A stretch of DNA of 13,820 nt from a virus. Taxonomy: Duplodnaviria > Heunggongvirae > Uroviricota > Caudoviricetes. The notes under the pieces were generated by a model that had not been told where the DNA came from, ran no database searches, and saw only the letters and a program-made list of their open reading frames with translations. A program made the translations under genes and the position numbers. Positions 1 through 13,820 of this stretch are shown here, one piece after another. Location of the stretch: IMG/VR virus record IMGVR_UViG_3300034105_001678, positions 69,543 through 83,362 of that record, one strand, 5' to 3'. How positions within the stretch are numbered: the first letter of the stretch is position 1; every line of letters starts with the position of its first letter.

Positions 1-1634
1 AAAAATTGTCGAACATCATTATTATCGGCCGAAGATGGTGTTTTATCTATTGGTTGGTAATTACCTTCTACCCAAAGTTTTTTGTAATTAAACTTAACAT
101 ATCCTAAATAAGGTATTGTTTTGTCAACAGGTTCCGTGATTGTTGTTAAATTTTTGACTCCATACATATATTCAAGTTTGGTGTTTATACCAATATTAGT
201 CCCTAAAATATTATCATTCATATATACTAACGTTCCACCACTTACCGAAATACCTCCAATATTATCAGTTCTAAAGACATTAGTCGATACCGTTGTTATA
301 TTGAATGCGTCGTTCAATTCTTTAAAATAAAAATCAAAATATAAATTGTTACGTTTATATCCAAATCTATATGTTTGTGCATTTTCTTGTTTTAAATTGG
401 GGTTTGGTAATTGTGTACCTCGACCATTTGTCATTGCTTGTTTAATCATCGGATAACTTGGTGCGTTTAGAGAATTATCATAACTTACAAATAATCCCTT
501 ATATCCGATAATTGTAGAATATTCTACACCATTGAATGGGTCTACATCGGTTATTTGTACATTTTTAAACCCAAAACTTGTATAGAGTTTTAATTTCCCA
601 AAATCATTTTTCCAACGGATACCTTGTTTTGTTGTTTTATAATCATCATTAAAAATACCGTTAACCAAACCATTTTCGTATCTAATTTTTTCGATGGTAT
701 TAGTTGAATATAAAGTAAATGAATATGGTAGATGATATTCTAAATTTGCGGTATACACATCTAAACGAGTGATTACTTTTTTAGTTCCATCCAAAATATT
801 TTCCGCATTATTTTGATAACCGAGATTTACATATAATCTATTAAAATACATTTTGTGATTAAGAAACAGATATCTTTGTAATTCCCACGTATAGACTGTC
901 GGTTTTTGATATCCAGCACTTCTTAAACCTCCATTCCATTTGTCGGTTCTTTCTAAATCATTTGATTGTGAAAATATAATAGTTGTTTTTTGTGATGGTG
1001 ACCAGATTGCTTCCGAAACTAATGCTTTTTGATTGTACCTACTGTGTTGAAACGTACTATCGGGTGATTTAACGTTACCATAATCGATATTGTTAAATCC
1101 AACACCAAATTTTTTACCTTTGTACGATACAGATTGACTAAACCCATCAACCCCACCTATATAATTTAGTCCAATATGTGATGATTGTACACCGACACTT
1201 CTTTCAATTGTACCTCCGATATTACCACCATCGGTAATTGAAATTAGTTTTGTAAATTCTAACGGAACCCACCCAAAATATTGATTTGGGCCGGTTCTAA
1301 ATAAACCATTATTAACTCTAATACCGTTAATGGATTGATCAACTTGGTTACCGGTAAACACACCGATATATGGACTTAATTGTCCAGGACTTGTTTCTTG
1401 TATACGTGCGGAATTTACGTATATTTTTGGATCTTTTATTACTTGTTGTATTTGATAATTGGTACCACTTACAACAACAACTTCTTTTAATTCTTTAGCA
1501 GTTGTGTCCCTTTGAACTTTTTTAGGTTGTTCTGAACCTTTCTGAACTGTACTACTACTATATTGACCATATGACAACGTTGTAGTAAACAATGATGCTA
1601 ACATTAGCGATAGCATTGTGATTGTTTTTCTCAT
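1..1634 (-). CDS. TonB-dependent outer-membrane receptor, compact, 3'-truncated by the window edge (>=544 aa); not in the supplied ORF track
   Basis: Manually translated from ATG at 1634 with no in-frame stop to the edge. Signal peptide MRKTITMLSLMLASLFTTTLSYG-Q; TonB-box-like DTTAKELKEVVVVSG (aa 43-57); plug QETSPGQLSPYIGVFTGNQVDQSINGIRVNNGLFRTGPNQY...IGG (to about aa 145); aromatic-rich amphipathic beta strands; barrel loop LNAPS...PNPNLKQE (aa 389-417), corresponding to the FRAP/NPNL motifs. Confidence 0.88.
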   Translation of the reverse strand, partial: MRKTITMLSLMLASLFTTTLSYGQYSSSTVQKGSEQPKKVQRDTTAKELKEVVVVSGTNYQIQQVIKDPKIYVNSARIQETSPGQLSPYIGVFTGNQVDQSINGIRVNNGLFRTGPNQYFGWVPLEFTKLISITDGGNIGGTIERSVGVQSSHIGLNYIGGVDGFSQSVSYKGKKFGVGFNNIDYGNVKSPDSTFQHSRYNQKALVSEAIWSPSQKTTIIFSQSNDLERTDKWNGGLRSAGYQKPTVYTWELQRYLFLNHKMYFNRLYVNLGYQNNAENILDGTKKVITRLDVYTANLEYHLPYSFTLYSTNTIEKIRYENGLVNGIFNDDYKTTKQGIRWKNDFGKLKLYTSFGFKNVQITDVDPFNGVEYSTIIGYKGLFVSYDNSLNAPSYPMIKQAMTNGRGTQLPNPNLKQENAQTYRFGYKRNNLYFDFYFKELNDAFNITTVSTNVFRTDNIGGISVSGGTLVYMNDNILGTNIGINTKLEYMYGVKNLTTITEPVDKTIPYLGYVKFNYKKLWVEGNYQPIDKTPSSADNNDVRQF

Positions 1635-1657
1635 TTGTTTTTTGTTTAAGAAAAGTT

Positions 1658-1674
1658 TATTATTGATAATAATA
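1658..1674. promoter_or_regulatory. 7-3-7 inverted repeat TATTATT-GAT-AATAATA upstream of the TBDR, abutting or overlapping a TATATT -10-like hexamer (minus strand, 1671-1676); possible metal-responsive (Fur-like) operator
   Basis: Perfect 7-bp arms containing the Fur half-site TGATAAT (1664-1670), in the 70-nt gap before the TBDR. The AT-rich context makes a chance match plausible. Confidence 0.3.
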
Positions 1675-1704
1675 TAAACAAAAATGACGATAAAACAAAG
1701 GAAT

Positions 1705-1914
1705 TTACTTTTTAAATCCTAGTTTTTCCCAAACAATTTTGAATGGACAAACACCTGTAAGTGCTGCTAAAGGTAATAAAATTGGGGGAGCCCAATGTAA
1801 CCAACTAACATTATCAAATCCCGCTAAACAATTAGCGATAAACACCACAACTCCTACTGATAGGAATGTCATTCTTGCTGATGGTGAGGCGTCACCTAAA
1901 TTAAAAATTCTCAT
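1705..1914 (-). CDS. Small membrane protein, DUF2892/YgaP-like (69 aa)
   Basis: MRIFNLGDASPSARMTFLSVGVVVFIANCLAGFDNVSWLHWAPPILLPLAALTGVCPFKIVWEKLGFKK: two hydrophobic segments ending in the TGxCP...LG signature. The start at 1914 is preferred over 1956 because it forms an ATGA overlap with the upstream stop. Confidence 0.65.
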   Translation of the reverse strand: MRIFNLGDASPSARMTFLSVGVVVFIANCLAGFDNVSWLHWAPPILLPLAALTGVCPFKIVWEKLGFKK

Positions 1915-2243
1915 ATTATATGTTTTAAAATAATCGTTAATGAAATCATTATCCACATTGTGTTAAAAACAATAAGGGTTGGGAGTGATTTCCTCATACT
2001 AGCCCAAATTAAAAGAGATGATGTTAAAAGAGTTAAAAAATGTAACCACCAAATTTCTTTACCAAACACCAAACCTGGTACAATGATTGCAGCTTTAGCC
2101 ATCCAAGCCGAACATTCAATTGTGTTGTAGTTTGTCCAATATTCTTTATCGGTGTACATTAAAATTTTATTCCAAATCTTTTTGTATCCAATTAGTCCAA
2201 ACAATAGACTAATAAATGTGAAATATGTTAAGATGTATATCAT
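1911..2243 (-). CDS. Hypothetical multi-pass membrane protein (110 aa; N-terminal TM plus about 3 TM)
   Basis: Hydrophobic segments separated by short charged loops (YWTNYNTIE, RKSLPTL). ATGA overlaps at both ends (2240-2243 and 1911-1914). Confidence 0.8.
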   Translation of the reverse strand: MIYILTYFTFISLLFGLIGYKKIWNKILMYTDKEYWTNYNTIECSAWMAKAAIIVPGLVFGKEIWWLHFLTLLTSSLLIWASMRKSLPTLIVFNTMWIMISLTIILKHII

Positions 2244-2410
2244 TTTATTTTATTTAAAAGTTCTTCTTTAAATTCTTTCTCAGGTTTTTGAAAGTGCATC
2301 CACATTGGTTTTTTACATTGGCAAGTGGATTCAGTTATTCTATTAACCAAATCATTATATTTCTCTTCTAAAAATTGAATACGTTCTTTTAATTCTTTAA
2401 TCTCGTCCAT
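2240..2410 (-). CDS. Small hypothetical protein (56 aa): N-terminal coiled coil, then CQCKKPMWMH
   Basis: ATG at 2410 overlaps the halogenase end by 14 nt, and its TGA overlaps the next ATG. The track start at 2452 is a TTG deep inside the halogenase. Confidence 0.65.
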   Translation of the reverse strand: MDEIKELKERIQFLEEKYNDLVNRITESTCQCKKPMWMHFQKPEKEFKEELLNKIK

Positions 2411-3914
2411 AGAATTTTTTAAGGTATTCATAGTGGTTAGGTAATTGGTCAACTAACAGTTCTGCTTCCTTGCGGATAATCTCCATTTTCATATCACAAA
2501 ACTTATCGTATTTTGGATTTAATTTAAATCTACTATTTTTATAGAACCCCATAGCCCATAACCATTGGAACCAATTAACTCCACCAAATATACGACCTCT
2601 AAACAATTGTTCAGGTGGTTGTATTGACATAATATGTAACTTTTGTTTTAATGTGTCAGGTACAAATGATTTCTCTTTTACGTCTTTCCAAAATTGAGTA
2701 TCGTTCCTATTACATAATAAATAATGTGCCTGAATGAAATCTCTAATATCAATCATCATATCGATGTTATCTTTATTGATTGCATCAATTGTTGATGATG
2801 TGTAGTTAAGATTATTTTTTTCTAATTCCGTTGCTAATGTTGCCATTATACCTTGAAACGTTGAAATACCTGTCGACTCCATTGGTTCCGCAAAACCACC
2901 AGCTAATCCACAAGCAACTACATTTTTAACTGCTACTTTTTCACGAGTACCAATTCTCATATTAATTTTTATAACCTTACCATCGTATCCTCCGTGAAAT
3001 TCTCTATATTCTTTTTCCGCATCCTCATCACTAATATGTTTTGATGAGTACACATACCCAGAACCTATTCTATCGAAGATGGGTGTTTTCCATAACCAAC
3101 CACTATTCATTGTGTAAAGTCTCGAATATGGTTCCATTTCTGATTTCTTATCTTTATATGGGATTGGTGCTGCAATGGCTTTATCACAAAATAATGAATC
3201 ACTAAATGAAATGAATGGTTCATTCATAACTGATTCAATTAATGCACCTTTGAACCCAGAACAATCAATAAACAAATCAGCCGCAAATTTTTGTTGATCC
3301 CATAATTTAATGTCTTGAATATAACCAAAGTCATTTAGTTTAACTTGTTTTAATTGACCCTCAACAAATTTAACACCATTAGGTATACATACTTTATTTT
3401 TAATAACTTCAGCAAATTTAATTGCGTCGAAATTATAACTGTAAACACTCTCAATGTCTTCGTAAGTTGGTAGATAAGTTAAATCATCATCAATTTTTGG
3501 ACAAAGATTATTATCACATAATTTAGAAGATATAAATAACTCATCTAATTTTTTTGAGTCGTCTTTATATTTCGATACAAGGTGTTGTAGTAAGTTTGTG
3601 TTTTTATTAACAAATAATTTAGATTCATTCTCAACACGAACCATATGTTCACCTGTACTAGACCAATTCATAAACTTACCTCCGTACTTATATGTTGCAG
3701 ACGATTCATTCATCCAATCTTCTTCTTTAAGTCCTATAAATTTCATATAAGAATGAAGACTAGCCGTTGAACTTTCACCAACACCAATTGCACCAATTTT
3801 ATTTGAGTGAATTACTGTGATGTCTAATTTTTCTTTAAATACTTTAGACAATAATGCTGCTGTCATTATGCCAGCTGTACCGCCACCAACGATTACAATT
3901 TTTTTAATTTCCAT
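2397..3914 (-). CDS. Flavin-dependent halogenase, tryptophan-halogenase (PrnA/RebH/VirX1-like) family (505 aa)
   Basis: GGGTAG (aa 10-15), IGVGES, catalytic-Lys motif ATYK76xGxKFxNW, FIDCSGF, WxWxIP-type GWLWKTP (aa 272-278), and FxxPxxSxG-type FAEPME346STG. Confidence 0.92.
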   Translation of the reverse strand: MEIKKIVIVGGGTAGIMTAALLSKVFKEKLDITVIHSNKIGAIGVGESSTASLHSYMKFIGLKEEDWMNESSATYKYGGKFMNWSSTGEHMVRVENESKLFVNKNTNLLQHLVSKYKDDSKKLDELFISSKLCDNNLCPKIDDDLTYLPTYEDIESVYSYNFDAIKFAEVIKNKVCIPNGVKFVEGQLKQVKLNDFGYIQDIKLWDQQKFAADLFIDCSGFKGALIESVMNEPFISFSDSLFCDKAIAAPIPYKDKKSEMEPYSRLYTMNSGWLWKTPIFDRIGSGYVYSSKHISDEDAEKEYREFHGGYDGKVIKINMRIGTREKVAVKNVVACGLAGGFAEPMESTGISTFQGIMATLATELEKNNLNYTSSTIDAINKDNIDMMIDIRDFIQAHYLLCNRNDTQFWKDVKEKSFVPDTLKQKLHIMSIQPPEQLFRGRIFGGVNWFQWLWAMGFYKNSRFKLNPKYDKFCDMKMEIIRKEAELLVDQLPNHYEYLKKFYGRD

Positions 3915-3926
3915 AAAATGTTTTTT

Positions 3927-4658
3927 TTAAGCTTCAGGTGCAGGTACTGCGTCGAATCTTGAGTCTCCAGGTATAATTGTTCTTTCCACAGGTAAAACGA
4001 CATTTAAAATATCATCACCTTCCGTATTTTTTAATTGGGTAACATATGATTCCTCTTCAGAAAACATTTGAGCAATTTGTAATTTATAATTCTCATAAGC
4101 CACCAATACTGACGGAACTAATTCCGAAACCGAAACACCTCTTGCATCCGCAATTAAACTTAATGTTGGTGTTGGTGATGTTGGGTCTTCGGTATAATCT
4201 TTAGCTTCACTAACTTGTGAATCCCAAGTTGCTCTTTCTTGTGGGGTCTTATTGATTGATAAAGTTTCAAACTTTTGTTTGTAGTAATCTTTAACCATTC
4301 TTATTCTAACCCAACGAATTGCTTCATATCTATCAGTAACTTCACTATCGACCATTGGTCTCTTGATACGAATACCTTTGTTTGCATCAAAATCTTCATC
4401 GAAGAATTCAGCAGATTGACCTCCTGAATAATTCTTATAAAGTTTGGCACTTTCTTTAGTTGCAATAAAATAAAGAAGTCCATTTATTACTTGTTCATTA
4501 CATAAAACGATACCATATTTTTGAATTAGTCCAGTTGATACTTTTGCTATATCAGGTACTGTGCAGAAATAATAGTTCTCTGCGTATCTTAATTGTTCCA
4601 ACCCACTTATCATTGGATGACCTTCACCCTGTGGTATTCTGTATGCTATGTAGTCCAT
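3927..4658 (-). CDS. Phage tail-fibre-assembly-like protein with a C-terminal DUF4376-like domain (243 aa)
   Basis: The C-terminal ERATWDSQVSEAKDYTEDPTSPTPTLSLIADARGVSVSELV matches the E-x2-TW-x2-Q-x2-EA...TP-x-L-x2-IA-x2-RG pattern of fibre-associated phage proteins. The N-terminal domain was not recognised. Confidence 0.65.
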   Translation of the reverse strand: MDYIAYRIPQGEGHPMISGLEQLRYAENYYFCTVPDIAKVSTGLIQKYGIVLCNEQVINGLLYFIATKESAKLYKNYSGGQSAEFFDEDFDANKGIRIKRPMVDSEVTDRYEAIRWVRIRMVKDYYKQKFETLSINKTPQERATWDSQVSEAKDYTEDPTSPTPTLSLIADARGVSVSELVPSVLVAYENYKLQIAQMFSEEESYVTQLKNTEGDDILNVVLPVERTIIPGDSRFDAVPAPEA

Positions 4659-4659
4659 T

Positions 4660-5313
4660 TTACTCTTGTTTAAAATCTATTTCTTTTCTTTGGTTATTTT
4701 CTAGGAGTTCTTGATCCCCTATCATATCTAAATATTTTACTTGTCCTTTTACTTCGTTTGTAATTTTAGTTGCCTCAACTAACGCTTTCCTAAAATTGGT
4801 ATCACCCATTTGCATTAACGCCTCTAAATTACCAACACCAATACGACCAACTGTTAGTAATTCTAACGCCGCTTGGTTTGCCAACCTTTTAATCCAATAA
4901 TCAGTTTCATATACTTCTTGATTTTCCATCAACTCCTTTACATCAATTTTAGATCTAAACTCTTCTAAAATTTGTTCAAGATACGAAAGTTCCCCTTTGG
5001 TTCTTTCCATACTTCTGTTTCCATTTTCATATCCGATATCTAATTTCTTAATTTCGTGTTGATACAACGCCTTTTGAGCCTCTGAAGTTTCTGATAAAAA
5101 TTTTTCCATCACTAAATTCCTTTCTAAACGATTTTTCTCCATATCCAAACCAATTTGCTCAAGGTTAGTAATTCTAACCTCCATTTCTAATAAAATCTGT
5201 TTGAATTGTCTAAAATTATTGTGTTGAGACCCAACAACGAAATGTTTAATTTGGAATTGACTCATTGAAAAGTTTAAGTCTTTATATTCCAACGGTAATT
5301 TATCTTCTGTCAT
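4660..5313 (-). CDS. Hypothetical coiled-coil protein (217 aa)
   Basis: Long E/K/L-rich heptad segments (aa about 40-130), then YWIKRLANQAALELLTVGRIGVGNLEAL. Its stop lies 1 nt from the next start. Confidence 0.85.
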   Translation of the reverse strand: MTEDKLPLEYKDLNFSMSQFQIKHFVVGSQHNNFRQFKQILLEMEVRITNLEQIGLDMEKNRLERNLVMEKFLSETSEAQKALYQHEIKKLDIGYENGNRSMERTKGELSYLEQILEEFRSKIDVKELMENQEVYETDYWIKRLANQAALELLTVGRIGVGNLEALMQMGDTNFRKALVEATKITNEVKGQVKYLDMIGDQELLENNQRKEIDFKQE

Positions 5314-5330
5314 ATTTCTTTGTTTTTTAT

Positions 5331-5359
5331 AATATAAGTAAATAATTTGACATTGTCAA
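5331..5359 (-). promoter_or_regulatory. sigma70-type promoter TTGACA-N17-TATATT
   Basis: Minus strand: TTGACA at 5359-5354, an exact 17-nt spacer, and TATATT at 5336-5331, 17 nt before the ATG at 5313. It sits in a 53-nt intergenic gap. Confidence 0.65.
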
Positions 5360-5361
5360 AT
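5345..5361. repeat. Perfect 8-1-8 palindrome ATTTGACA-T-TGTCAAAT covering the -35 element
   Basis: Read directly from the sequence. It begins 5 nt after the stop of 5367..6953 and places TTGACA on both strands. Confidence 0.85.
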
Positions 5362-5366
5362 GAATA

Positions 5367-6953
5367 TTAAAATGATGCCCACATTCCTGAACCAGATGAT
5401 GCTGAGCGAGGTGCATCGGTAATTTGAACTATAGTGTCAATATTATAGTTAATTTTATCTGAGTGTGCGTTTTGACCATCGGTACAACTGTAACCACCCG
5501 CAAAATAACCCCAGTTCATTCCCATAAGTCCCGCGTGTTCGTTATTCCATCTTGTTTGTGAACCACTATTGATAGTCCAAGTTGATGTAGTGTTTACGAA
5601 TTTAAATATTCTATTTCCATCAGAAGTGGTACAATAAGTACCACCCCAATTACCCGCTAAATAAAATTTATCTTGTTTTGAATTAACACCCTTTTCCGCT
5701 CCGCTTCCTGGCATACCTAACGCTCCTGGATTACTATTTGTTGATACAGTTGTCCAAACTTCAGTTGAGTGTGGCATTTTATTGGTTACGGTTGTTGAAC
5801 CTCCATACGCTGAAGCAAATTGAAAACTATAGTCTTTATCAAACCAGCCAACAGCGTATTGTCCAACAGGTGCACCTGTTGTAGATGTCCAAGTTTCAGA
5901 TGCAAACAATAATATGTCCATATAAGTGGTACCCTTACCAACTTCAAATCCTTTAGTTCCATAAGATGCTAAAGTATTATATGTTCCACCTTGAGCTGAA
6001 GGTAATGCGGATGGTAAGTAACCAATACCGTGTTGACAAGATGATGGAGAACCTCCAGCACCGTTGGGTCTAGCGGCAATTGCTTGTACTGTATCGGTAG
6101 CAAAGTTTACTCTATCATTTGTTGTGTCACCATTTTGTACATTATGGTAAGTGTATCCATTTGACATTGCACTTGCCCATCCAGCATATTTAATTGCTTT
6201 GTTTAATGAAGATGCCATATATGACCAACTATCTGTTGCATATAATAATCTAAGAATGTTACTATATAAAGTACTGCCAATATAACCACCCCCAACGTAT
6301 CCCCTTACTAAATTTAAATCAAATCTGTATGTGTTTGTTAGAAAGGCAAAAACTGGTCTATCGTTATGTTTAAGAGTTGCTGCCTGTGATTCAATTCTAA
6401 GTGGTTGAACTTCGGTATCTCCAGCCTCACCCACAACAATACAAACAGCATCTGTTGATGCGATTGTTGTTGAAGATGAATTAGTGAAATTTGTCCAAGG
6501 TCCACCAGGTCCATCTGTAGCATACTGTAATGTTAAAGTGTTTCCACTTCTTTGCCATTTAAACCAATAACCTGTTGTAGCAGCACCACCACTACCGATA
6601 GGTGCGTGATATTGTCCAAAGAACGTTGCACTATATCCATTCGGAAATCCAGATGTGTTTAACGCTCCCGCGTAAGGTCCATTACCATCAGCTGAATATC
6701 CATTAAAATCTGTATGATTAACGGTTGGTCCATAAACAAATCCAGTACCTCTATAGTTGTGAGCCCAATATGCAATAATAATAAAATCTTCACCAGCTGC
6801 AAAGGTATAATCATATACAACTGTTGTATATCCACTACCAGAACTAAAAATTGTACTATTAGTGCCTGACAACGTTCCACGTATGTGATAAGTTGATGGT
6901 TGTCTCCAACCTCGTCCTTTGTCAAATAATTCTATATTACCTGTTACTTGCAT
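5367..6953 (-). CDS. Putative virion adhesin: ConA-like beta-sandwich (aa about 17-192) plus a six-bladed Kelch-like beta-propeller (aa about 218-528)
   Basis: YWFKWQRSGNTLTLQYATDGPGGPW resembles the LxRxGxxxxxxxSxDGxxW strand pair of ConA-like domains. The propeller has GYxGGGY...Y/FATD/ETW repeats. Paralogous to the next two genes. Confidence 0.7.
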   Translation of the reverse strand: MQVTGNIELFDKGRGWRQPSTYHIRGTLSGTNSTIFSSGSGYTTVVYDYTFAAGEDFIIIAYWAHNYRGTGFVYGPTVNHTDFNGYSADGNGPYAGALNTSGFPNGYSATFFGQYHAPIGSGGAATTGYWFKWQRSGNTLTLQYATDGPGGPWTNFTNSSSTTIASTDAVCIVVGEAGDTEVQPLRIESQAATLKHNDRPVFAFLTNTYRFDLNLVRGYVGGGYIGSTLYSNILRLLYATDSWSYMASSLNKAIKYAGWASAMSNGYTYHNVQNGDTTNDRVNFATDTVQAIAARPNGAGGSPSSCQHGIGYLPSALPSAQGGTYNTLASYGTKGFEVGKGTTYMDILLFASETWTSTTGAPVGQYAVGWFDKDYSFQFASAYGGSTTVTNKMPHSTEVWTTVSTNSNPGALGMPGSGAEKGVNSKQDKFYLAGNWGGTYCTTSDGNRIFKFVNTTSTWTINSGSQTRWNNEHAGLMGMNWGYFAGGYSCTDGQNAHSDKINYNIDTIVQITDAPRSASSGSGMWASF

Positions 6954-6962
6954 ATTCTATAA

Positions 6963-7928
6963 TTAATAACCACTCCACATTGGTGATCCTGAACTTAATG
7001 ACCTTGGTGCGTCTGGTATTTGTATAACCGTATCTGTTGGGTATTCCACCCTATCTGTGTGTGCATTTTGTGCTCCATTATATCCTCCCGCCCAATATCC
7101 GTGATTCTGACCCATAACTGGTGATTGTTCACCATTAGCTAAAGTTTGGTTATATGGATTTGTTTGATATGAATATGTTATGTGCATAAATTTCATAAAT
7201 GGATAGGTTACATTATCCCCAATAACATATGATTTAGCATCTTTTGTTGGTAGTCCTTTACCCCAAGCACCTAAAGATGTTGTATAGTTAGGTGAACAAG
7301 ATATAGATCCCCAAGTTTCAGTTGCGTATGGATATCTTCTAGTCACACCATCATTACCCAAACTAAATCCCGCTAATTTATCAAACCAAGCTTGTGTATA
7401 TGCGGTTCCAGTTGCAATACTACCATCACTAGCTGCCACCCAAGTATCTGCCGCGAAGTTTAATTTATCGTAGTTAGTACTATTTGCGTTTGCTAAGGTA
7501 TATGCTCTAGTCCCAAAAAAAGAACCGTCGGTGTTGTAACCAATACCGTGTTGTATTTGTGATGAACTATTAGCACTTGCGTAGTTTCTATTATTGATGT
7601 TAGTACATACTTCAGTACTAAATGCCATTTTTTGATTTATTACATCTCCACCGCACCAAAACATATATCCGTTTGTGTGTGAACTTGCCCAACCTCCATA
7701 ATATAAACTTGATCGTAACGATGCGTTTGCAGATGTTCCCCAAGCATCTGTTGCATTTTGTATTGTTGTTACAACTGACCAAACTGAAGAACCAATATAA
7801 CCACCACCGATATATCCTTTAGTTAAGGATAAACCATTCTTATAATCATCGGCAATGTATTCAAGGTTCAAAGCTGAACCATTGTATTTCATTGTTCCCG
7901 TATAATTTATTTGTCCGTATACTTTCAT
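6963..7928 (-). CDS. Six-bladed Kelch-like beta-propeller protein, paralog 2 (321 aa)
   Basis: About 43-50-aa repeats: GYIGGGY..NATDAW, GYMF..FSTEV, RAYTL..FAADTW, GFSL..YATETW, KSYVIG..ITYSY, GYWAGGY..YPTDT. The C-terminal PRSLSSGSPMW is a candidate velcro strand. Confidence 0.75.
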   Translation of the reverse strand: MKVYGQINYTGTMKYNGSALNLEYIADDYKNGLSLTKGYIGGGYIGSSVWSVVTTIQNATDAWGTSANASLRSSLYYGGWASSHTNGYMFWCGGDVINQKMAFSTEVCTNINNRNYASANSSSQIQHGIGYNTDGSFFGTRAYTLANANSTNYDKLNFAADTWVAASDGSIATGTAYTQAWFDKLAGFSLGNDGVTRRYPYATETWGSISCSPNYTTSLGAWGKGLPTKDAKSYVIGDNVTYPFMKFMHITYSYQTNPYNQTLANGEQSPVMGQNHGYWAGGYNGAQNAHTDRVEYPTDTVIQIPDAPRSLSSGSPMWSGY

Positions 7929-7932
7929 ATTA

Positions 7933-8904
7933 TTAAATTGGACTCCACATTGGAGATGCTGAACTTAATGATCTTGGCGCGTCCGCAATTTGAACGACCG
8001 TATCTGTATTGTGAAACACTTTGTCACTATGCGCATTTTGACTATAGGTACCTTGATATCCACCAGCTAAATAACCGTGATTCTGTCCCATAGTTCCTGC
8101 GTGTTCACAGTTGGGTTGTGTTTGACTTCCAAAATTTACAGTCCACGTTGATATACTATTTCTAAATTGGAATATTGTATTATTATACCAACCACTATTA
8201 CCCGCAACATACGCCTTACCTTTTTTAGTATTAAGACCTTTCTCTAATTGTCCTTGTGGCATACCCATAGTAATTGGTCCACTAACTGTTGAAAGTGTTG
8301 ACCAAGTTTCGGATGCAAATGGAAATATTTTAGTGTAATTATTTAACGATGCAAAGTTCCAACCATACTCTTTATCAAACCAACCGTAAGCGTGAGATGC
8401 TTGACCTATGTTACCATCCGACCTTGCGGTCATTGAATCTGTTGTAAAATCTAATTTATCATAACTAGTTGATGAGTTTCCACAAGTGTATGCATATCTT
8501 CCATATGGTACTCCCGTTGTTTCAAATCCAACACCTTGTTGAATCAATGATGGTGAATAACTACCATTTGTTCTTGCTGCGGTTGTTGTAACTGTCTCAT
8601 TGGCAAACATTACTTTATTAACTGTGGATGCATTTCCTTGAAAAACATAACCGAATGTATGTGCTGAAGCCCATCCTCCGTAATTGGTTGTGAATGTTAA
8701 TATATTAGATGAAGTTGCCCAAGCATCTGTCGCATAACTTAATAATGTTATGGTATTCCATACTGAAGCACCAACATAACCACCACCAATCAAACCACGA
8801 ATAAGAACTAATCCTAATTCGTAGTGACTATCTAAAACACTTTTAATATCTCTACCTTGTACTGTTAGATTTCCCGTAAAATTTACATCTCCGTTTACTT
8901 TCAT
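7933..8904 (-). CDS. Six-bladed Kelch-like beta-propeller protein, paralog 1 (323 aa)
   Basis: Same repeat architecture: GLIGGGY..YATDAW, FANETV, FTTDSM, FASETW, ISTW, GYLAGGY..HNTDT, ending in PRSLSSASPMW. Starts 1 nt after the fibre stop. Confidence 0.75.
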   Translation of the reverse strand: MKVNGDVNFTGNLTVQGRDIKSVLDSHYELGLVLIRGLIGGGYVGASVWNTITLLSYATDAWATSSNILTFTTNYGGWASAHTFGYVFQGNASTVNKVMFANETVTTTAARTNGSYSPSLIQQGVGFETTGVPYGRYAYTCGNSSTSYDKLDFTTDSMTARSDGNIGQASHAYGWFDKEYGWNFASLNNYTKIFPFASETWSTLSTVSGPITMGMPQGQLEKGLNTKKGKAYVAGNSGWYNNTIFQFRNSISTWTVNFGSQTQPNCEHAGTMGQNHGYLAGGYQGTYSQNAHSDKVFHNTDTVVQIADAPRSLSSASPMWSPI

Positions 8905-8905
8905 A

Positions 8906-11900
8906 TTACAGTCCTAATTTACCTTTTAATTCTGTTATAATCAAGTTCTGTTCGTTTATTTCTTGCTTTAATTCTTTAACTGCCTCAATAAGATATGCAT
9001 TTATTCTACCGTAAGAAACTGAATCAACTTCACCATCTTTATTTTTAAGAACAACTAATGGTGTTACATCATACATTTCTTCCGCAATCACACCCGCCTC
9101 AATATTACCACTATCTTTTCTTGTGTATGTTACACCTCTCATTTGAAGTATCTTATCTAAACCGTATTTAATTGTTTCAATATTTGTTTTATATCGAATG
9201 GATGAATTTTCAGTAAAAATACCACCAACCGTTATACTACCTTTGGTATAGAAGTTACCAGTTGCTGAACTCATTTCAGCAACAATGGATGGTTGACCTG
9301 TTGATGTTCCCGCTTCCCAAGTCCAACCATAACCGCTAGAGTTTTCAATGAAACTACGAAGTGCCCACGATGTTACAAAATTACCAGCTGCAGGTGAGGT
9401 AATATTACCCGTTGGTCCAGTACTGGCAACGTTTACTGCTGCCATATATTGACACCACGCCGTATAACCACTTGAATACCAATTAATACCGTGAGTTGTA
9501 TTGGCACTTCTTTGTATAAAATGACTTCTAGCATATAAATCAACAAATGTTGGTGAGTTACCCGTACCAACACTTTGGTTAATCGTATATGCTGTTATGT
9601 TACCTGCAGTACCTGCAGTTGAAGCATATGACACAGATTGTGAACCAATGTTACCCGTGGTAATTGCATCTGTTATTCCATAACCACTTATTGTTGTTGG
9701 TTTTGATGAAACGTTTGCGAAAGATATACCTGTGATGTATCCGTTTGGATTCGTTGCGTTATATGGTGTATAACCTAACGCTGTTGTAACGTTACCACTG
9801 GTTATACTCGAAATATATCCCGATGGGTTAGTTGCATTGTATGGGGTAAATCCAAGTGCCGTTGTTACATTACCACTCGTTATACTTGAAATGTAACCAG
9901 ATGGGTTCGTTGCGTTGTATGGAGTGTAACCTAATGCGGTTGTAACGTTGCCGCTAGTTATACCTGTTAAATAAGCACTATTATTTGTGAACTGTGAAAT
10001 GTTCATTGAACTTAATGCTCCCGCTGTCGCTACCGTTTGTGAACCAATATTACCACTATGTATAAACTCTCTCCAAGTTTGCCATCCACTATCATTTCTT
10101 CTTCTAAAATACGCAACGTCCGAAGCGTAATCAAACGCTAATTGTGTTCTTCTATCAAAGTTATTACCAATATTAACAGTTCTTATATTTGGTGATGATA
10201 ACGGTGGTGTACCTGAAGGTACTGGGTCAAATGTTGTAAAACTTTCTCCCCAATCAGAATCTATATTACCAGTTATTGTACCATTAGATTTTACAGAATC
10301 AGTAATTCCATATCCACTAAGTGTTGTTGGTTTTGATGAAACGTTAGCAAATGATATACCTGTAATATAACCCGATGGGTTAGTTGCATTATACGGAGTA
10401 AATCCTAAAGCTGTTGTTACATTACCACTGGTTATACTTGAGATATACCCTGATGGATTGGTTGCGTTGTATGGAGTGTAACCTAATGCGGTTGTAACGT
10501 TACCACTAGTTATACTTGAAATGTAACCAGATGGGTTAGTTGCGTTGTATGGTGTAAATCCTAAAGCCGTTGTTACGTTACCGCTCGTTATACCTGTTAA
10601 ATAAGCACTGTTATTTGTGAACTGTGAAATGTTCATTGATGTCAACGCGCCCGCCGTAGTTGCTGTTGTTGCATTACCACTTAATGCGCCTGTGAACGTT
10701 GTTGCACTTACTGTTGAGAATGTTGGTGTACTAGTTGTTAATACTGCTTGGTTTATAACTGAACCATATCCTATTGTTGAACTTAAGGTAATTTGTGCAC
10801 TACCCGATACCAAACCAGACGGTATACTACCAATTGATCCGAATGTTATTTGAGACGAGCCCGATACTATTGTTGTTCCTGTTGAAACAATTGTACCATT
10901 AATAACGGTGTTAGATAAAACAGTAACGGTTGTACCGTCATCTGTTATGTTTGAATCATTTAAGTGATCTCCTCCGGCAGATTTTGCAATTCTACCACTT
11001 GTTAATGTTAATTCACTTCCTAATGAACCAGAGCTACGAGGTCCAGATAATATAACACCACCACCATACGAAGCCTCACTTGAGTTTTGATAAACCCACC
11101 TATTATTAACTGAGTCCCATAATAAAGATCCTGTCGCGATTCCAACCGAACCCGAATCGTGAACTTCTAATCCACCAAATCTAGAACCTGGACTCGCTGT
11201 GTTTACTGTAATAATATTATCCTCAACTCTTAATTGAGATGATGTCACATATGTTATAGATGAGGAACCAAAAACTGTTAAGTTTTCAGTAATTATTACC
11301 GAACCACTAATTGTTTGTAAGCCTTTGAATGTGTTAGAACCGGTGGTTGCGTAACTACCACTTTTACCTTCAATCGAATCTAACCTATTGCTTTGATTTA
11401 ATGTTGTGGTAGCAATTGAAGAACTTAATGATCCAATACTAGAACTTAATCCGCTTGTTGTTGTTGCAACTGATGATGATAAACTCCCAATACTAGAACT
11501 TAATCCACTTGTTGTTGTTGCAACACTTGAAGATAAACTTCCAATACTACTTGTTAAAGAAGAACTTAATCCTAATGTTGTAGTTGCAACTGAAGAAGAT
11601 AAACTTCCGATTGAACTAGACAATGAGGAACTTAATCCTGATGTAGTTGTTGCAACGCTTGAACTTAAACTTCCAATGGAGGAACTTAATCCACTAGTTG
11701 TTGTTTCGACACTAGAACTTAACGAACCAATACTAGAACTCAACCCACTTGTTGTGGTTGCAACAGAGCTAGATAATGAACCTATACTTGTGGATACACT
11801 TGAGCTGAATGTTGAATATCCTGTGGTACCTGTTATTAAAACTTGATCACTTCCAGATATAACTGTTTCCGTGTTAAGTTTATTTTTAATTGTGGTATCA

Positions 11901-12742
11901 ATAGAACTAGTAAATGTATTTAAACTACTTGTTGATGTTTGTAGTGTTCCAATTATCGTGTTATTAGAACCTGTGTAGGTATTCAATGAACCAATAGACC
12001 CCGTCACTCCTTCGATAGAAGTCAACCTACCATTCTGAGTTGTTTCTACTGTATTGTTTGAACTTGTAAAAGAATTAAAATCTGTTCTTATTGAAGAACT
12101 ATCCGATTCAAGTGATGTCAATCTACCTGAAGCACTCGATGTGAATGTATTTAAAGAACCTGTCGATGTTTGTAAAGTTCCGATTACCGTATTATTACTA
12201 CTAGTGTAGGTGTTTAACAAACTAACAGAACCTGTAACTCCCTCAATAGATGTTAATCTACTATTTTGTGTGGTGTTAGTTGAATCATTTGAACTTGTAT
12301 ATGATTGAAATGTTGTTTCATCCAACTTTCCTGTACCAACAGGGACACCATTTAAAGTTATTGATCCCGAAATGGTAAGTGCTCCCGTAATTTCTGTATT
12401 TGAATTAACCCTTAATCCATTCGAATTTGAAATGGATGCTGTGGCAACCCCATCAGCAATTTGAGTTAAATTAAGACCCGTAACCCCACTTGCTGGAATA
12501 TTATATAGATTTGTACCGTCACCCTTAAAGGAACCAGTGAAGGATCCTGTAGTGTACGATGAGGTGAATTGGTGAAAACTTGAGGTTAAGGTGTATTTTG
12601 GGGCTTCGGATGCGGTTAACGCATTAGTGGTTGTTCCACTAACCGTAGCATTTATCGTTCCTAGTACGGTTAAGTTTCCTGAAATCTCAGCTGAACTCGA
12701 TACCGATAGCGATCCAGATATGTGTGCGTCAAATATATTCAT
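8906..12742 (-). CDS. Long tail fibre / receptor-binding protein with a C-terminal Peptidase_S74 intramolecular chaperone (1278 aa)
   Basis: C-terminal SSIRYKTNI...GVTY...GVIAEE...P..V...SVSY...LIEAVKEL is the S74 pattern (Ser1180/Lys1185). Also two KPTTxSGYGITD fibre motifs, a knob-like RTQLAFDYASDVAYFRRRNDSGWQTW segment, a VEDNIITVN...LLWDSVNNRW shaft motif, and an S/T/G-rich stalk. Confidence 0.92.
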   Translation of the reverse strand: MNIFDAHISGSLSVSSSAEISGNLTVLGTINATVSGTTTNALTASEAPKYTLTSSFHQFTSSYTTGSFTGSFKGDGTNLYNIPASGVTGLNLTQIADGVATASISNSNGLRVNSNTEITGALTISGSITLNGVPVGTGKLDETTFQSYTSSNDSTNTTQNSRLTSIEGVTGSVSLLNTYTSSNNTVIGTLQTSTGSLNTFTSSASGRLTSLESDSSSIRTDFNSFTSSNNTVETTQNGRLTSIEGVTGSIGSLNTYTGSNNTIIGTLQTSTSSLNTFTSSIDTTIKNKLNTETVISGSDQVLITGTTGYSTFSSSVSTSIGSLSSSVATTTSGLSSSIGSLSSSVETTTSGLSSSIGSLSSSVATTTSGLSSSLSSSIGSLSSSVATTTLGLSSSLTSSIGSLSSSVATTTSGLSSSIGSLSSSVATTTSGLSSSIGSLSSSIATTTLNQSNRLDSIEGKSGSYATTGSNTFKGLQTISGSVIITENLTVFGSSSITYVTSSQLRVEDNIITVNTASPGSRFGGLEVHDSGSVGIATGSLLWDSVNNRWVYQNSSEASYGGGVILSGPRSSGSLGSELTLTSGRIAKSAGGDHLNDSNITDDGTTVTVLSNTVINGTIVSTGTTIVSGSSQITFGSIGSIPSGLVSGSAQITLSSTIGYGSVINQAVLTTSTPTFSTVSATTFTGALSGNATTATTAGALTSMNISQFTNNSAYLTGITSGNVTTALGFTPYNATNPSGYISSITSGNVTTALGYTPYNATNPSGYISSITSGNVTTALGFTPYNATNPSGYITGISFANVSSKPTTLSGYGITDSVKSNGTITGNIDSDWGESFTTFDPVPSGTPPLSSPNIRTVNIGNNFDRRTQLAFDYASDVAYFRRRNDSGWQTWREFIHSGNIGSQTVATAGALSSMNISQFTNNSAYLTGITSGNVTTALGYTPYNATNPSGYISSITSGNVTTALGFTPYNATNPSGYISSITSGNVTTALGYTPYNATNPNGYITGISFANVSSKPTTISGYGITDAITTGNIGSQSVSYASTAGTAGNITAYTINQSVGTGNSPTFVDLYARSHFIQRSANTTHGINWYSSGYTAWCQYMAAVNVASTGPTGNITSPAAGNFVTSWALRSFIENSSGYGWTWEAGTSTGQPSIVAEMSSATGNFYTKGSITVGGIFTENSSIRYKTNIETIKYGLDKILQMRGVTYTRKDSGNIEAGVIAEEMYDVTPLVVLKNKDGEVDSVSYGRINAYLIEAVKELKQEINEQNLIITELKGKLGL
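9668..10654 (-). repeat. Two 357-nt (119-aa) direct copies (10298-10654 and 9668-10024), each with 3 x 26-aa GNVTTALG[F/Y]TPYNATNPxGYI units
   Basis: Translation and DNA alignment by eye. The copies are offset by 630 nt and separated by a unique 91-aa knob-like domain (10025-10297). Confidence 0.92.
11402..11791 (-). repeat. Seven 18-aa (two are 22-aa) SIGSLSSSVATTTSGLSS repeats in the fibre stalk
   Basis: Seen directly in the translation. The DNA copies differ heavily at synonymous sites. Confidence 0.92.
11903..12310 (-). repeat. Two degenerate copies with a 77-aa (231-nt) period (FxSxTSSNxxxxTTQNxRLTSIEGVTGS...LNTFTSS)
   Basis: Units start at 12310 and 12079; RLTSIEGVTGS is identical in both. 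Confidence 0.85.
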
Positions 12743-12764
12743 CTAAATGTGTGTTATACAATAG

Positions 12765-12774
12765 ATAAATACTT
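12765..12774 (-). promoter_or_regulatory. AAGTATTTAT motif upstream of the fibre gene; possible phage late-promoter element
   Basis: Lies in the 54-nt gap before the structural genes, where no sigma70 -35 was found. It resembles the reverse complement of T4-type TATAAATA. Single occurrence, so weak support. Confidence 0.25.
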
Positions 12775-12796
12775 TATATTTTATATTGTGACTTAA

Positions 12797-13600
12797 TTAA
12801 ATTAACGCCTTTTTGGGTTGTGTTAATCCCAATGGTAGGTATTCTCTGAAATTTTTATATATATAATCGAATAATACTCTACCATAGTGTTTATGATGTT
12901 CAATACCAGGATGTAAATTATCTGAACCTAAGTCCATTTTAAACTTATCTAATGCTGTAAATCTATTAAACTCCTTATAATCCGTTAGTAAATGTTTACC
13001 ATCCCATAACCAATTACATTTTTTTGACTCTAAAAATAACTTTATTAACATATGATTTTTATACCAATTTACAAAATCGGCATTTTTATTTTGTAATGCG
13101 TCCATACTACTTTGAATTATTTTACCGTCTTCCGTTTCCGATAATTTTCCCCAGGATTTGGTTGGTATATATGGTTCGATACTATTATCTTCAGTATAAA
13201 TTTCTCTCCTATGTGGGAATGTATACATTATTAAAACTAAATCTGGTTTAATTAAATCATAATAACTCATTAAACACCTACTTATAAAATCATTACTCCT
13301 TCCTCCTGTTCCAAAATTAAAATTTACACTATTTTCAATATGACTACAAAATTGAGCGGGCCAAGTTTCATCATCATTTACACCAACACCTTCAGTGATT
13401 GAACAACCTAATGACATTACCTTAAACCCTTCTTTTTTTATACTGTCACCTCTAAACCCCAATTCATTATATGTGTATACACATTTACCAGTGCTATCAC
13501 CACCAGAAGTTGTGTAAGTTTGATTTACTCTTTCTTTTAATGAATATCTATAAGATGATATTTCAAATCCTTCTGGATTCCAATATTGTAAAGATTTCAT
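12797..13600 (-). CDS. SGNH/GDSL hydrolase-like protein (267 aa)
   Basis: Block I-like LGCSITEG, block II-like NFGTGGRSND, DLVLIM strand, and block V DxxH as DNLHPG. Preceded by YNELGFRG, which is common in this type. Confidence 0.8.
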   Translation of the reverse strand: MKSLQYWNPEGFEISSYRYSLKERVNQTYTTSGGDSTGKCVYTYNELGFRGDSIKKEGFKVMSLGCSITEGVGVNDDETWPAQFCSHIENSVNFNFGTGGRSNDFISRCLMSYYDLIKPDLVLIMYTFPHRREIYTEDNSIEPYIPTKSWGKLSETEDGKIIQSSMDALQNKNADFVNWYKNHMLIKLFLESKKCNWLWDGKHLLTDYKEFNRFTALDKFKMDLGSDNLHPGIEHHKHYGRVLFDYIYKNFREYLPLGLTQPKKALI

Positions 13601-13820
13601 ATCAATTTATTTATTTCCAATGGATTTATGTGTTCGTTTTGTAAAAACCATAATAAAGAGTATCGTTCTCCTTTTAAAATTGGTGTTATTTCGTGGTCTA
13701 TTCTTGTATCAAATAAATATGTATTCCCCATCACTTTATTTAATACGATTTCATTTGGGTTATACAACTTAAAGTCTCCACCCTCAAAATCGTCACTTAA
13801 TAAGACTCCCACAGCATATA
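13597..13820 (-). CDS. 2OG-Fe(II) oxygenase (prolyl-4-hydroxylase-like), C-terminal part; 5'-truncated by the window edge
   Basis: YAVGVLLSDDFEGGDF...GNTYLFDTRIDHEITPILKGERYSL has the distal His and the 2OG-binding RxS. The frame is open to 13820, so the GTG at 13812 is internal. Its TGA overlaps the SGNH ATG (ATGA). Confidence 0.85.
   Translation of the reverse strand, partial: YAVGVLLSDDFEGGDFKLYNPNEIVLNKVMGNTYLFDTRIDHEITPILKGERYSLLWFLQNEHINPLEINKLI

Follow-up and report, generated by a model that had tools for sequence, protein, structure and literature searches.

A conserved, probable host-recognition block, a variable enzyme slot, and a putative envelope transport unit in an uncultured T4-like phage

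We analyzed the last 13.8 kb (13,820 nucleotides; hereafter the window) of the 83,362-bp IMG/VR virus record IMGVR_UViG_3300034105_001678, a record that CheckV estimates to be ~25% complete and whose contig end forms the right edge of the window. The source is an uncultured large T4-like aquatic phage. Related loci carry neck protein, gp32, UvsW, and RNase H genes, and no GenBank phage gave a megablast match to the window. Among its genes are those for a tail fiber, three propeller heads, a flavin-dependent halogenase, and an outer-membrane protein with the fold of a TonB-dependent receptor (TBDR). We consider it likely that the window is comprised of a host-recognition module, a variable enzyme slot, and an envelope transport unit, the recognition module standing beside an accessory hotspot with a nutrient-import pair. 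The split into three units follows from how the genes are inherited, as the TBDR assorts independently and the halogenase does not. A stable host-recognition unit can now be told apart from swappable cargo in this striking locus, the value of which lies in a near-phage-specific TBDR family, a cassette slot whose occupants share a leader, and an unexplained linkage between the genes G07, R355, and DUF401.

Approximately 130 related viral loci were compared (29 TBDR-centered, 80 G07-centered, and 18 halogenase-centered, together with contigs holding the exact proteins and annotated cultured phages), and ~30 gene families were mapped onto them by tblastn. The recurrent order is fiber, one to three propellers, G07, G08, sometimes a radical-SAM gene, R355, a methyltransferase, a variable set drawn from halogenase, 2-oxoglutarate (2OG) oxygenase, cupin, U257, U245, and g11, and then an outer-membrane protein with DUF401. 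It ends in ferritin and neck genes, or in a 151-residue protein gene and an inverted glycan island. When G07-centered loci are dereplicated at 95%, a propeller lies upstream of G07 in 31/31 clusters, G08 is adjacent in 28/30, and R355 follows in 29/30. The propeller, G08, G07, and R355-methyltransferase block also occurs in the cyanophages S-CAM4 and S-H25, and freshwater relatives as well as these two cyanophages share the fiber/propeller/G07/G08 module at 25-30% identity. By sequence comparison, the fiber, propellers, G07, and G08 are a real, deeply conserved block. Of all genes in the cluster, R355 is conserved best, at 44% identity across freshwater, cyanophage, and Ralstonia phages.

The outer-membrane gene has a different history. 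On a G07 tree of 39 dereplicated loci, each with at least 7.7 kb of downstream sequence, the minimum number of changes is one for R355, two for the halogenase, three for DUF401, and seven each for the TBDR and for OMP312, a 312-residue outer-membrane protein; this set is a union of G07-, halogenase-, and TBDR-centered samples, which biases halogenase and TBDR frequencies upward. R355 is absent only from the clade formed by the window genome, L040, and L036, and DUF401 is present in 30/39 loci. Even phages that are nearly identical can have the TBDR, OMP312, or none of the two (L006/L007 versus L101; L023/L134 versus L119/L125 versus L121/L122/L127), and L040, whose G07 is the most similar among the IMG/VR relatives (67% identity), has OMP312 exactly in the TBDR slot and no TBDR there. 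Because the TBDR comes and goes among close relatives, we view the locus as neighboring modules rather than one machine. A sequence-only reading of this DNA had proposed a single adhesin/envelope system and had set co-occurrence across viral loci as its test beforehand; we find independent assortment for the TBDR and not for the halogenase. What stands of that proposal is the conserved adhesin block and the fixed halogenase slot. The TBDR, swapped or lost in seven changes, is on this comparative evidence not tied to the adhesin genes. The variable island that the same reading offered as an alternative fits the distal half of the window.

The features of the window, from the contig end inward, are as follows.

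13597..13818, minus strand: 2OG-Fe(II) oxygenase, of which the contig end leaves the C-terminal part (phrog_61, E 2.6e-9; PF13640, E 1e-3)
12797..13600, minus strand: putative SGNH/GDSL-type esterase, 267 residues (PF13472, E 0.059; motifs by eye)
8906..12742, minus strand: tail fiber, 1278 residues, with a Peptidase_S74 C-terminus (PF13884, E 6.8e-11; tail-fiber PHROGs)
7933..8904, minus strand: propeller head 1, 323 residues (phrog_1417, E 1.4e-13; 44% identity to head 2)
6963..7928, minus strand: propeller head 2, 321 residues, six-bladed and Kelch-like (AlphaFold2 model, pLDDT 84.6; Foldseek)
5367..6953, minus strand: propeller head 3, 528 residues (residues 199-526 are 43% identical to head 1)
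5314..5366, minus strand: promoter-like gap, 53 nt (TTGACA-17-TATATT, 11/12; inverted repeat TTTGACAATGTCAAA)
4660..5313, minus strand: G07, the 'YWIKRL' protein, 217 residues, helical (phrog_1409, E 1.4e-30)
3927..4658, minus strand: G08, 243 residues (phrog_1604/2618)
2397..3914, minus strand: flavin-dependent halogenase of the Trp-halogenase family, 505 residues (PF04820, E 4e-105)
2240..2452, minus strand: g10, 70 residues or shorter, soluble, coiled-coil-like, with CxC and without a hydrophobic segment
1911..2243, minus strand: g11, small membrane protein, 110 residues (hydrophobic segments; homologues adjoin DUF401)
1705..1956, minus strand: g12, small membrane open reading frame (ORF), 83 residues (69 from an internal ATG), with a C-terminal GVCPF and two hydrophobic segments
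1..1634, minus strand: TBDR-fold outer-membrane protein, codons 1-544 of 600 (AlphaFold2 and Foldseek; the ORF runs on to genome position 69374)

The first unit would serve host recognition, with a fiber that folds by means of its own S74 chaperone, three propeller adhesin heads, and the constant pair G07/G08. The S74 domain of the fiber (residues 1180-1231) scores 42.7 bits against a Pfam cut-off of 22 for PF13884, which places it in the family and, together with tail-fiber PHROG matches, bears out the earlier call of a fiber. The domain carries SSIRYKTNI, which we take to be the S74 Ser...Lys cleavage motif. In having a C-terminal S74 intramolecular chaperone with this Ser...Lys motif, the fiber resembles endosialidase-type fibers and spikes, but it lacks an enzymatic head, and separate propeller proteins are encoded downstream instead. 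Repeats of 78 nt and of 54/66 nt form arrays in the fiber gene. Two separated arrays of one 26-residue repeat (GNVTTALG[FY]TPYNATNPSGYISSITS) lie at window positions 9746-9963 and 10355-10593, with a segment of ~130 residues between them and a serine-rich region of 18-22-residue repeats further upstream in the protein.

At 35-44% identity, the three heads are paralogues of one another, and head 3 has an additional N-terminal domain of ~190 residues ahead of its propeller. With a head as query, scanning viral contigs by single sequence yielded nothing, and an alignment-free protein search then recovered the family. The AlphaFold2 model of head 2 (321 residues, pLDDT 84.6) matches Keap1, KLHL12, and SAKe at Foldseek E ~5e-14 and TM scores of 0.7-0.8, and the top 50 Foldseek matches are all Kelch or designed six-blade propellers, as expected of a six-bladed propeller. 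No Kelch Pfam model matched the heads, and thus their Kelch likeness is one of fold and not of sequence-family membership. The paralogy and the modeled six-bladed fold agree with the three propeller heads of the sequence-only reading, and the propellers are most likely alternative adhesin heads. The heads share a near-invariant Trp close to the C-terminus (W318, alignment A2). Heads of the halogenase-free phages (rows L007 and L015 of the same alignment) carry it equally, so this residue is not evidence for halogenation.

G07 and G08 may perhaps act in assembly or attachment. G07 homologues were found in 126 phage records and 274 IMG/VR stretches, a profile search of PDB sequences returned nothing significant for G07, and an Atlas look-up gave only its own viral cluster (0.78). 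Neither G07 nor G08 showed a recognizable enzyme fold or family in PHROG and NCBIfam searches, nor did G07 in the PDB profile search and Atlas look-up, and NCBIfam added nothing for the TBDR, g11, or g12 either. G08 had been called DUF4376-like, after a tail-fiber-assembly-associated family (PF14301), and its ATW..Q..EA....TPTL presumably resembles a motif of that family; the hidden Markov model lent no support, and the assignment was abandoned, with no PF14301 match at E <=10 either for the protein, which matched no Pfam model, or in the whole contig.

The second unit would be a variable enzyme slot directly downstream, holding the halogenase here and radical-SAM, methyltransferase, 2OG-oxygenase, and cupin genes in relatives. 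We fetched 18 viral halogenase loci, and in all of those with enough upstream sequence (14/14) the halogenase occupies one slot, downstream of the adhesin block after R355-methyltransferase. Of the remaining four of the 18, three are truncated on their upstream side and show the same order downstream, and the fourth lacks all of these genes. The contents of the slot vary, with radical-SAM-R355-methyltransferase in L007-type loci, R355-methyltransferase-2OG oxygenase in L015-type loci, R355-methyltransferase-halogenase-2OG oxygenase-cupin in L025-type loci, and the halogenase alone here, in L036, and in L040. L036 and L037 (heads 84% and halogenases 80% identical) have a halogenase followed by a methyltransferase and glycosyltransferases, and no TBDR or DUF401 was found within the 5.4 kb fetched downstream of the halogenase in these two loci.

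The halogenase aligns end-to-end with solved enzymes (PDB 5lv9, a Trp halogenase, E 1e-80; VirX1, 6qgm, E 4e-69) and matches PF04820 at E 4e-105, and on this evidence the earlier identification is secure. GGGTAG, K76, W273xW275..P278, and E343/E346 are invariant in alignment A3, so that the flavin adenine dinucleotide (FAD) motif, WxWxIP, the lysine, and the glutamates are all in place; the roles of these residues are established from PrnA and RebH. With its motifs intact, the enzyme looks active. No partner flavin reductase was recognized within the window. VirX1 of cyanophage Syn10 (PDB 6QGM) belongs to the same halogenase family and shares the conserved FAD motif, catalytic Lys, and Glu, but at ~31% identity it is more distant, and the window halogenase is closer to bacterial Trp halogenases (5lv9, 1e-80). 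In vitro, VirX1 is a broad-scope iodinase with an open active site that admits bulky substrates; no natural substrate is known for it (PMC8407142). A halogenase (prnA) has been reported in cyanomyoviruses without an assigned role (PMC2984593). The constant position of viral halogenases beside adhesin genes now offers a concrete place to seek the natural substrate of these enzymes. A link to bacterial halogenase-TBDR gene pairs, which we had expected, was dropped for lack of literature support and because the two genes assort separately in the phage data.

The fiber region of cyanophages (Kyanoviridae: Syn9 gp34-gp50, S-CAM4, S-H25) is the nearest described counterpart to these two units, with a fiber followed by proteins of ~300-380 residues, G07/G08 homologues, R355-methyltransferase, and, in some, Trp-halogenase and 2OG-oxygenase genes upstream of neck genes. 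Compared with S-CAM4 and S-H25, the window has G07 and G08 in reversed order, lacks R355 and the methyltransferase, and has the TBDR and small membrane proteins. Syn9 differs in that no G07, G08, or head homologue was detectable beside its halogenases.

The third unit would consist of g11, a swappable outer-membrane barrel (the TBDR here), and the DUF401 inner-membrane permease just outside the window, and it would give the infected cell an auxiliary import route encoded by the phage. The complete TBDR ORF encodes 600 residues (genome 69374-71176) with a signal peptide, and its last part is cut off by the window. An AlphaFold2 model built on a 39-sequence family alignment (pLDDT 85.7) matches ChuA, PhuR, ShuA, and BtuB at Foldseek E ~1e-20 and TM scores of 0.65-0.73, and the plug and 22-strand barrel were assigned by full-length model alignment. 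The 39 family members share a signal peptide and a TonB-box-like [DE]xVVV[TS][AG] (EVVVV[ST]G; KEVVVVSG here), and most end in F, L, or W, Phe in the window protein. No Pfam, PHROG, or NCBIfam model reaches threshold; the Plug model gives a weak match at the right position (13.6 bits, below its cut-off of 23.9), one family member carries PF00593, and distant matches at 1e-4 carry both Plug and barrel. With the model as its basis, the assignment proposed by the sequence-only reading holds at the fold level, and TonB dependence is putative. The window protein shares the plug and barrel fold, TonB-box-like motif, signal peptide, and C-terminal Phe with the heme receptors ChuA, ShuA, and PhuR and the cobalamin receptor BtuB, yet its sequence identity to them is 10-15%.

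This TBDR family, seemingly near-confined to phages, is here defined in a cassette slot beside a conserved permease. It lacks tblastn matches in cultured phages, and a profile search of PDB sequences found nothing significant. The family is almost confined to viral and metagenomic contigs, and a scan of species genomes that was confined to two family-specific motifs gave four distant matches, the only cellular relatives in it being Campylobacterota homologues. These homologues (L141 5095-8641 and L143 3431-10795, from Sulfurimonas and Sulfuricurvum metagenome-assembled genomes) lie between PhoX and PhoD alkaline phosphatases, a context that hints at a phosphate-starvation role for the TBDR subfamily. 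A member with 49% identity lies at 10001-11734 of a 528,804-bp ENA contig (L014), beside a periplasmic binding protein and a chemoreceptor; the contig is rich in ankyrin-repeat genes and may be bacterial or that of a giant virus. A more distant clade of phage TBDRs (27% identity) is located in the midst of replication genes (UvsW, gp32, RNase H, primase). Phage-borne TBDRs have been described as auxiliary genes in phages of ammonia oxidizers, with a proposed role in import of iron, heme, and other compounds (bioRxiv 10.64898/2026.05.02.722434). Those TBDRs are annotated as siderophore/heme-type, whereas the window family fits none of the curated models and shares its slot with a small barrel that takes its place in some relatives.

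That small barrel, OMP312, was observed at L040 9199-10137 and in 24 other loci as a 312-residue protein with a signal peptide, a TonB-box-like EVTVTA, and a C-terminus ending in WRF, encoded beside DUF401. Over its first ~69 residues, OMP312 has 68% identity to the leader of one TBDR family member, and beyond them the two are unrelated; thus, the outer-membrane slot is a cassette slot whose occupants have a 5' leader in common. The nearest Atlas clusters to OMP312 are Phenol_MetA_deg-like outer-membrane 'transporters'. DUF401 adjoins the outer-membrane gene in every lineage that has one. Directly after this pair, and before the neck genes, a ferritin gene occurs in one lineage (L025 11190-11627, with equivalent positions in L119-L135). 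Homologues of g11 with 52-53% identity lie directly upstream of DUF401 in L023, L024, L025, and L028, and are also found in L040 and L101.

Only g11 among g10-g12 is conserved in related loci. Neither g10 nor g12 had a tblastn match (E <=1e-5) in any related locus fetched, L040 included for g12, and the coding status of g10 is unsure for this reason. The earlier description of three mini membrane/thiol proteins survives for g11 and g12, which have hydrophobic segments, and not for g10, which is soluble with a coiled-coil look and a CxC. For g12, a YgaP-like transmembrane domain (DUF2892, PF11127) was considered and rejected, as no hidden Markov model match was found.

Import of a scarce nutrient would be the most economical function of the TBDR/DUF401 unit. 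Several observations fit this function: wherever the outer-membrane channel occurs, a polytopic inner-membrane protein accompanies it, a ferritin follows the pair in one lineage, PhoX and PhoD flank the Campylobacterota homologues, and a periplasmic binding protein neighbors the member on the 528-kb contig. The cargo may, as a best guess, be a phosphorus compound or a metal. No support was taken from a study of phosphate limitation, in which TBDRs are listed as depleted and not induced. If scarce-nutrient import during infection is true, it would add an outer-membrane step to phage auxiliary uptake genes such as pstS. The recognition and transport units would, on the three-unit reading, have no functional coupling.

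Several observations weigh against so clean a division. The substrate guess rests on homologues that are 25-39% identical and on neighboring genes, and the 39-locus set has the upward sampling bias described above. The enzyme slot always follows G07/G08 and is stable where G07 shares only 25-30% identity, and a gene order fixed over such distances could reflect function as well as descent. Cyanophage Syn9 carries two halogenases ~5 kb downstream of a fiber gene, and after them come a U257 homologue and 2OG oxygenases; a connection of some kind between the enzymes and the fiber module may thus exist. Furthermore, in the unrelated Ralstonia jumbo phage RP12 (L137, NC_041911.1; 7317-10038), G07, R355, and DUF401 are the consecutive ORF140, ORF139, and ORF138 (E 2e-18, 2e-88, and 7e-58, respectively). 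This trio suggests that G07 is functionally tied to DUF401, a tie for which the three-unit division does not account, and so that the recognition and transport units are not fully separate. Linked homologues of G07, R355, and DUF401 are also seen in cyanophage S-H25 (L138, 6096-10017), and this conserved trio spans very different groups of phages.

The stable position of the enzyme slot across distant lineages and the RP12 trio keep alive a different view, which we hold only tentatively and think unlikely. G07, R355, and DUF401, with G08 and a swappable barrel, would form one undescribed envelope system found in freshwater T4-like phages, cyanophages, and Ralstonia jumbo phages. Such a system would offer a route across both host membranes, with tailoring enzymes acting on the cargo or on the adhesins. 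In a limited literature search, neither the conserved G07/G08/R355/DUF401 cluster nor the TBDR/OMP312 cassette slot turned up as previously described, and a search for DUF401 returned only the look-alike names DUF4011 and DUF4015.

It is doubtful that the window works as one system in the stronger sense, in which the oxygenase, esterase, and halogenase tailor the fiber and propellers while the TBDR and small membrane proteins remodel the cell surface, for example as a superinfection block or to keep progeny from sticking to the cell as it lyses. The tight co-oriented packing of the genes speaks for it, as do an enzyme slot directly after the adhesin block in lineages as distant as cyanophages, the open active site for bulky substrates in VirX1 (PMC8407142), and the near-invariant W318 of the heads. 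It could also draw on the 267-residue SGNH-like protein, homologues of which are encoded directly upstream of the fiber in six relatives (L065, L105, L107, L111, L113, L116). The oxidative and acyl enzymes that the sequence-only reading placed here are weakly identified. The oxidative one is a 73-residue oxygenase piece (phrog_61 at 2.6e-9, PF13640 at E 1e-3 below the Pfam cut-off). The acyl one has as its best Pfam signal a weak PF13472 (GDSL) at E 0.059, with the SGNH-like GCSITEG, GRSND, and DNLHPG spotted by eye (blocks I, III, and V; GDS, GxND, DxxH), and no relative of it was found among PDB sequences. Speaking against such a system, the head Trp is equally present where the halogenase is absent; the TBDR changes seven times, being exchanged or missing even between nearly identical phages; heads and halogenase persist in L036 and L040 in the absence of the TBDR; and the TBDR clade at 27% identity lies in a group of replication genes.

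An equally doubtful alternative takes the fiber and heads as mere neighbors of a small-molecule pathway, with G07/G08, R355, methyltransferase, radical SAM, halogenase, 2OG oxygenase, and cupin making or tailoring a metabolite or a lipid or glycan head group, and DUF401 and the barrel moving the product. RP12 has G07-R355-DUF401 without detectable heads, R355 is the best conserved gene across phage groups (44% identity), and the L036 halogenase precedes a methyltransferase and glycosyltransferases. The surroundings of the cluster are also suggestive. Beyond the window and on the same strand lie DUF401, a protein of the Asp/Asn-hydroxylase family, and a 151-residue protein; next to these, the cluster borders on a glycan island of opposite orientation, which carries genes for UDP-galactopyranose mutase and glycosyltransferases. 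The gene after DUF401 (genome 67805-68371; L004:11805-12371; also in L040) is AspH-like, an Asp/Asn beta-hydroxylase-family gene with weak LpxO/OlsC similarity, and is possibly a lipid-modifying enzyme, as its sequence would suggest. Yet the window genome and its two nearest relatives, L040 and L036, lack R355 here and still keep G07, G08, and the halogenase. The window genome and L040 also lack the methyltransferase (L036 has one downstream of its halogenase), G07 and G08 are without a recognizable enzyme fold or family, and no carrier, ligase, or core scaffold gene was seen.

That everything downstream of the heads is a set of unrelated morons at an insertion-tolerant site is very unlikely, since, although G+C is lower in g07, the halogenase, g10, g11, and the TBDR (0.26-0.31) than in the fiber and heads (0.37-0.38), cassette changes are frequent, and nothing in the related loci fetched matches g10 or g12, the order of G07/G08 and R355-methyltransferase is kept over very large distances, DUF401 is in 30/39 loci, and the outer-membrane slot retains one leader while its barrel changes, which points to selection on a defined function of that slot.

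The general layout of the window is as the sequence-only reading described it, a co-oriented run of 13/13 minus-strand ORFs with only three gaps above 12 nt, at 12743-12796 (54 nt), 5314-5366 (53 nt), and 1635-1704 (70 nt). Upstream of the window genes, the coding strand has no T4-type late promoter TATAAATA. Between head 3 and G07, the gap at 5314-5366 holds the best sigma-70-like match of the window, TTGACA-17-TATATT, which agrees with the consensus at 11/12 positions, a consensus that may not suit the host. The gap is, by its sequence, possibly the start of a separate transcription unit. The promoter-like match and the inverted repeat TTTGACAATGTCAAA both lie at 5331-5359 on the minus strand, and the core pattern TTGACA-2 nt-GTCAA is unique in the contig.

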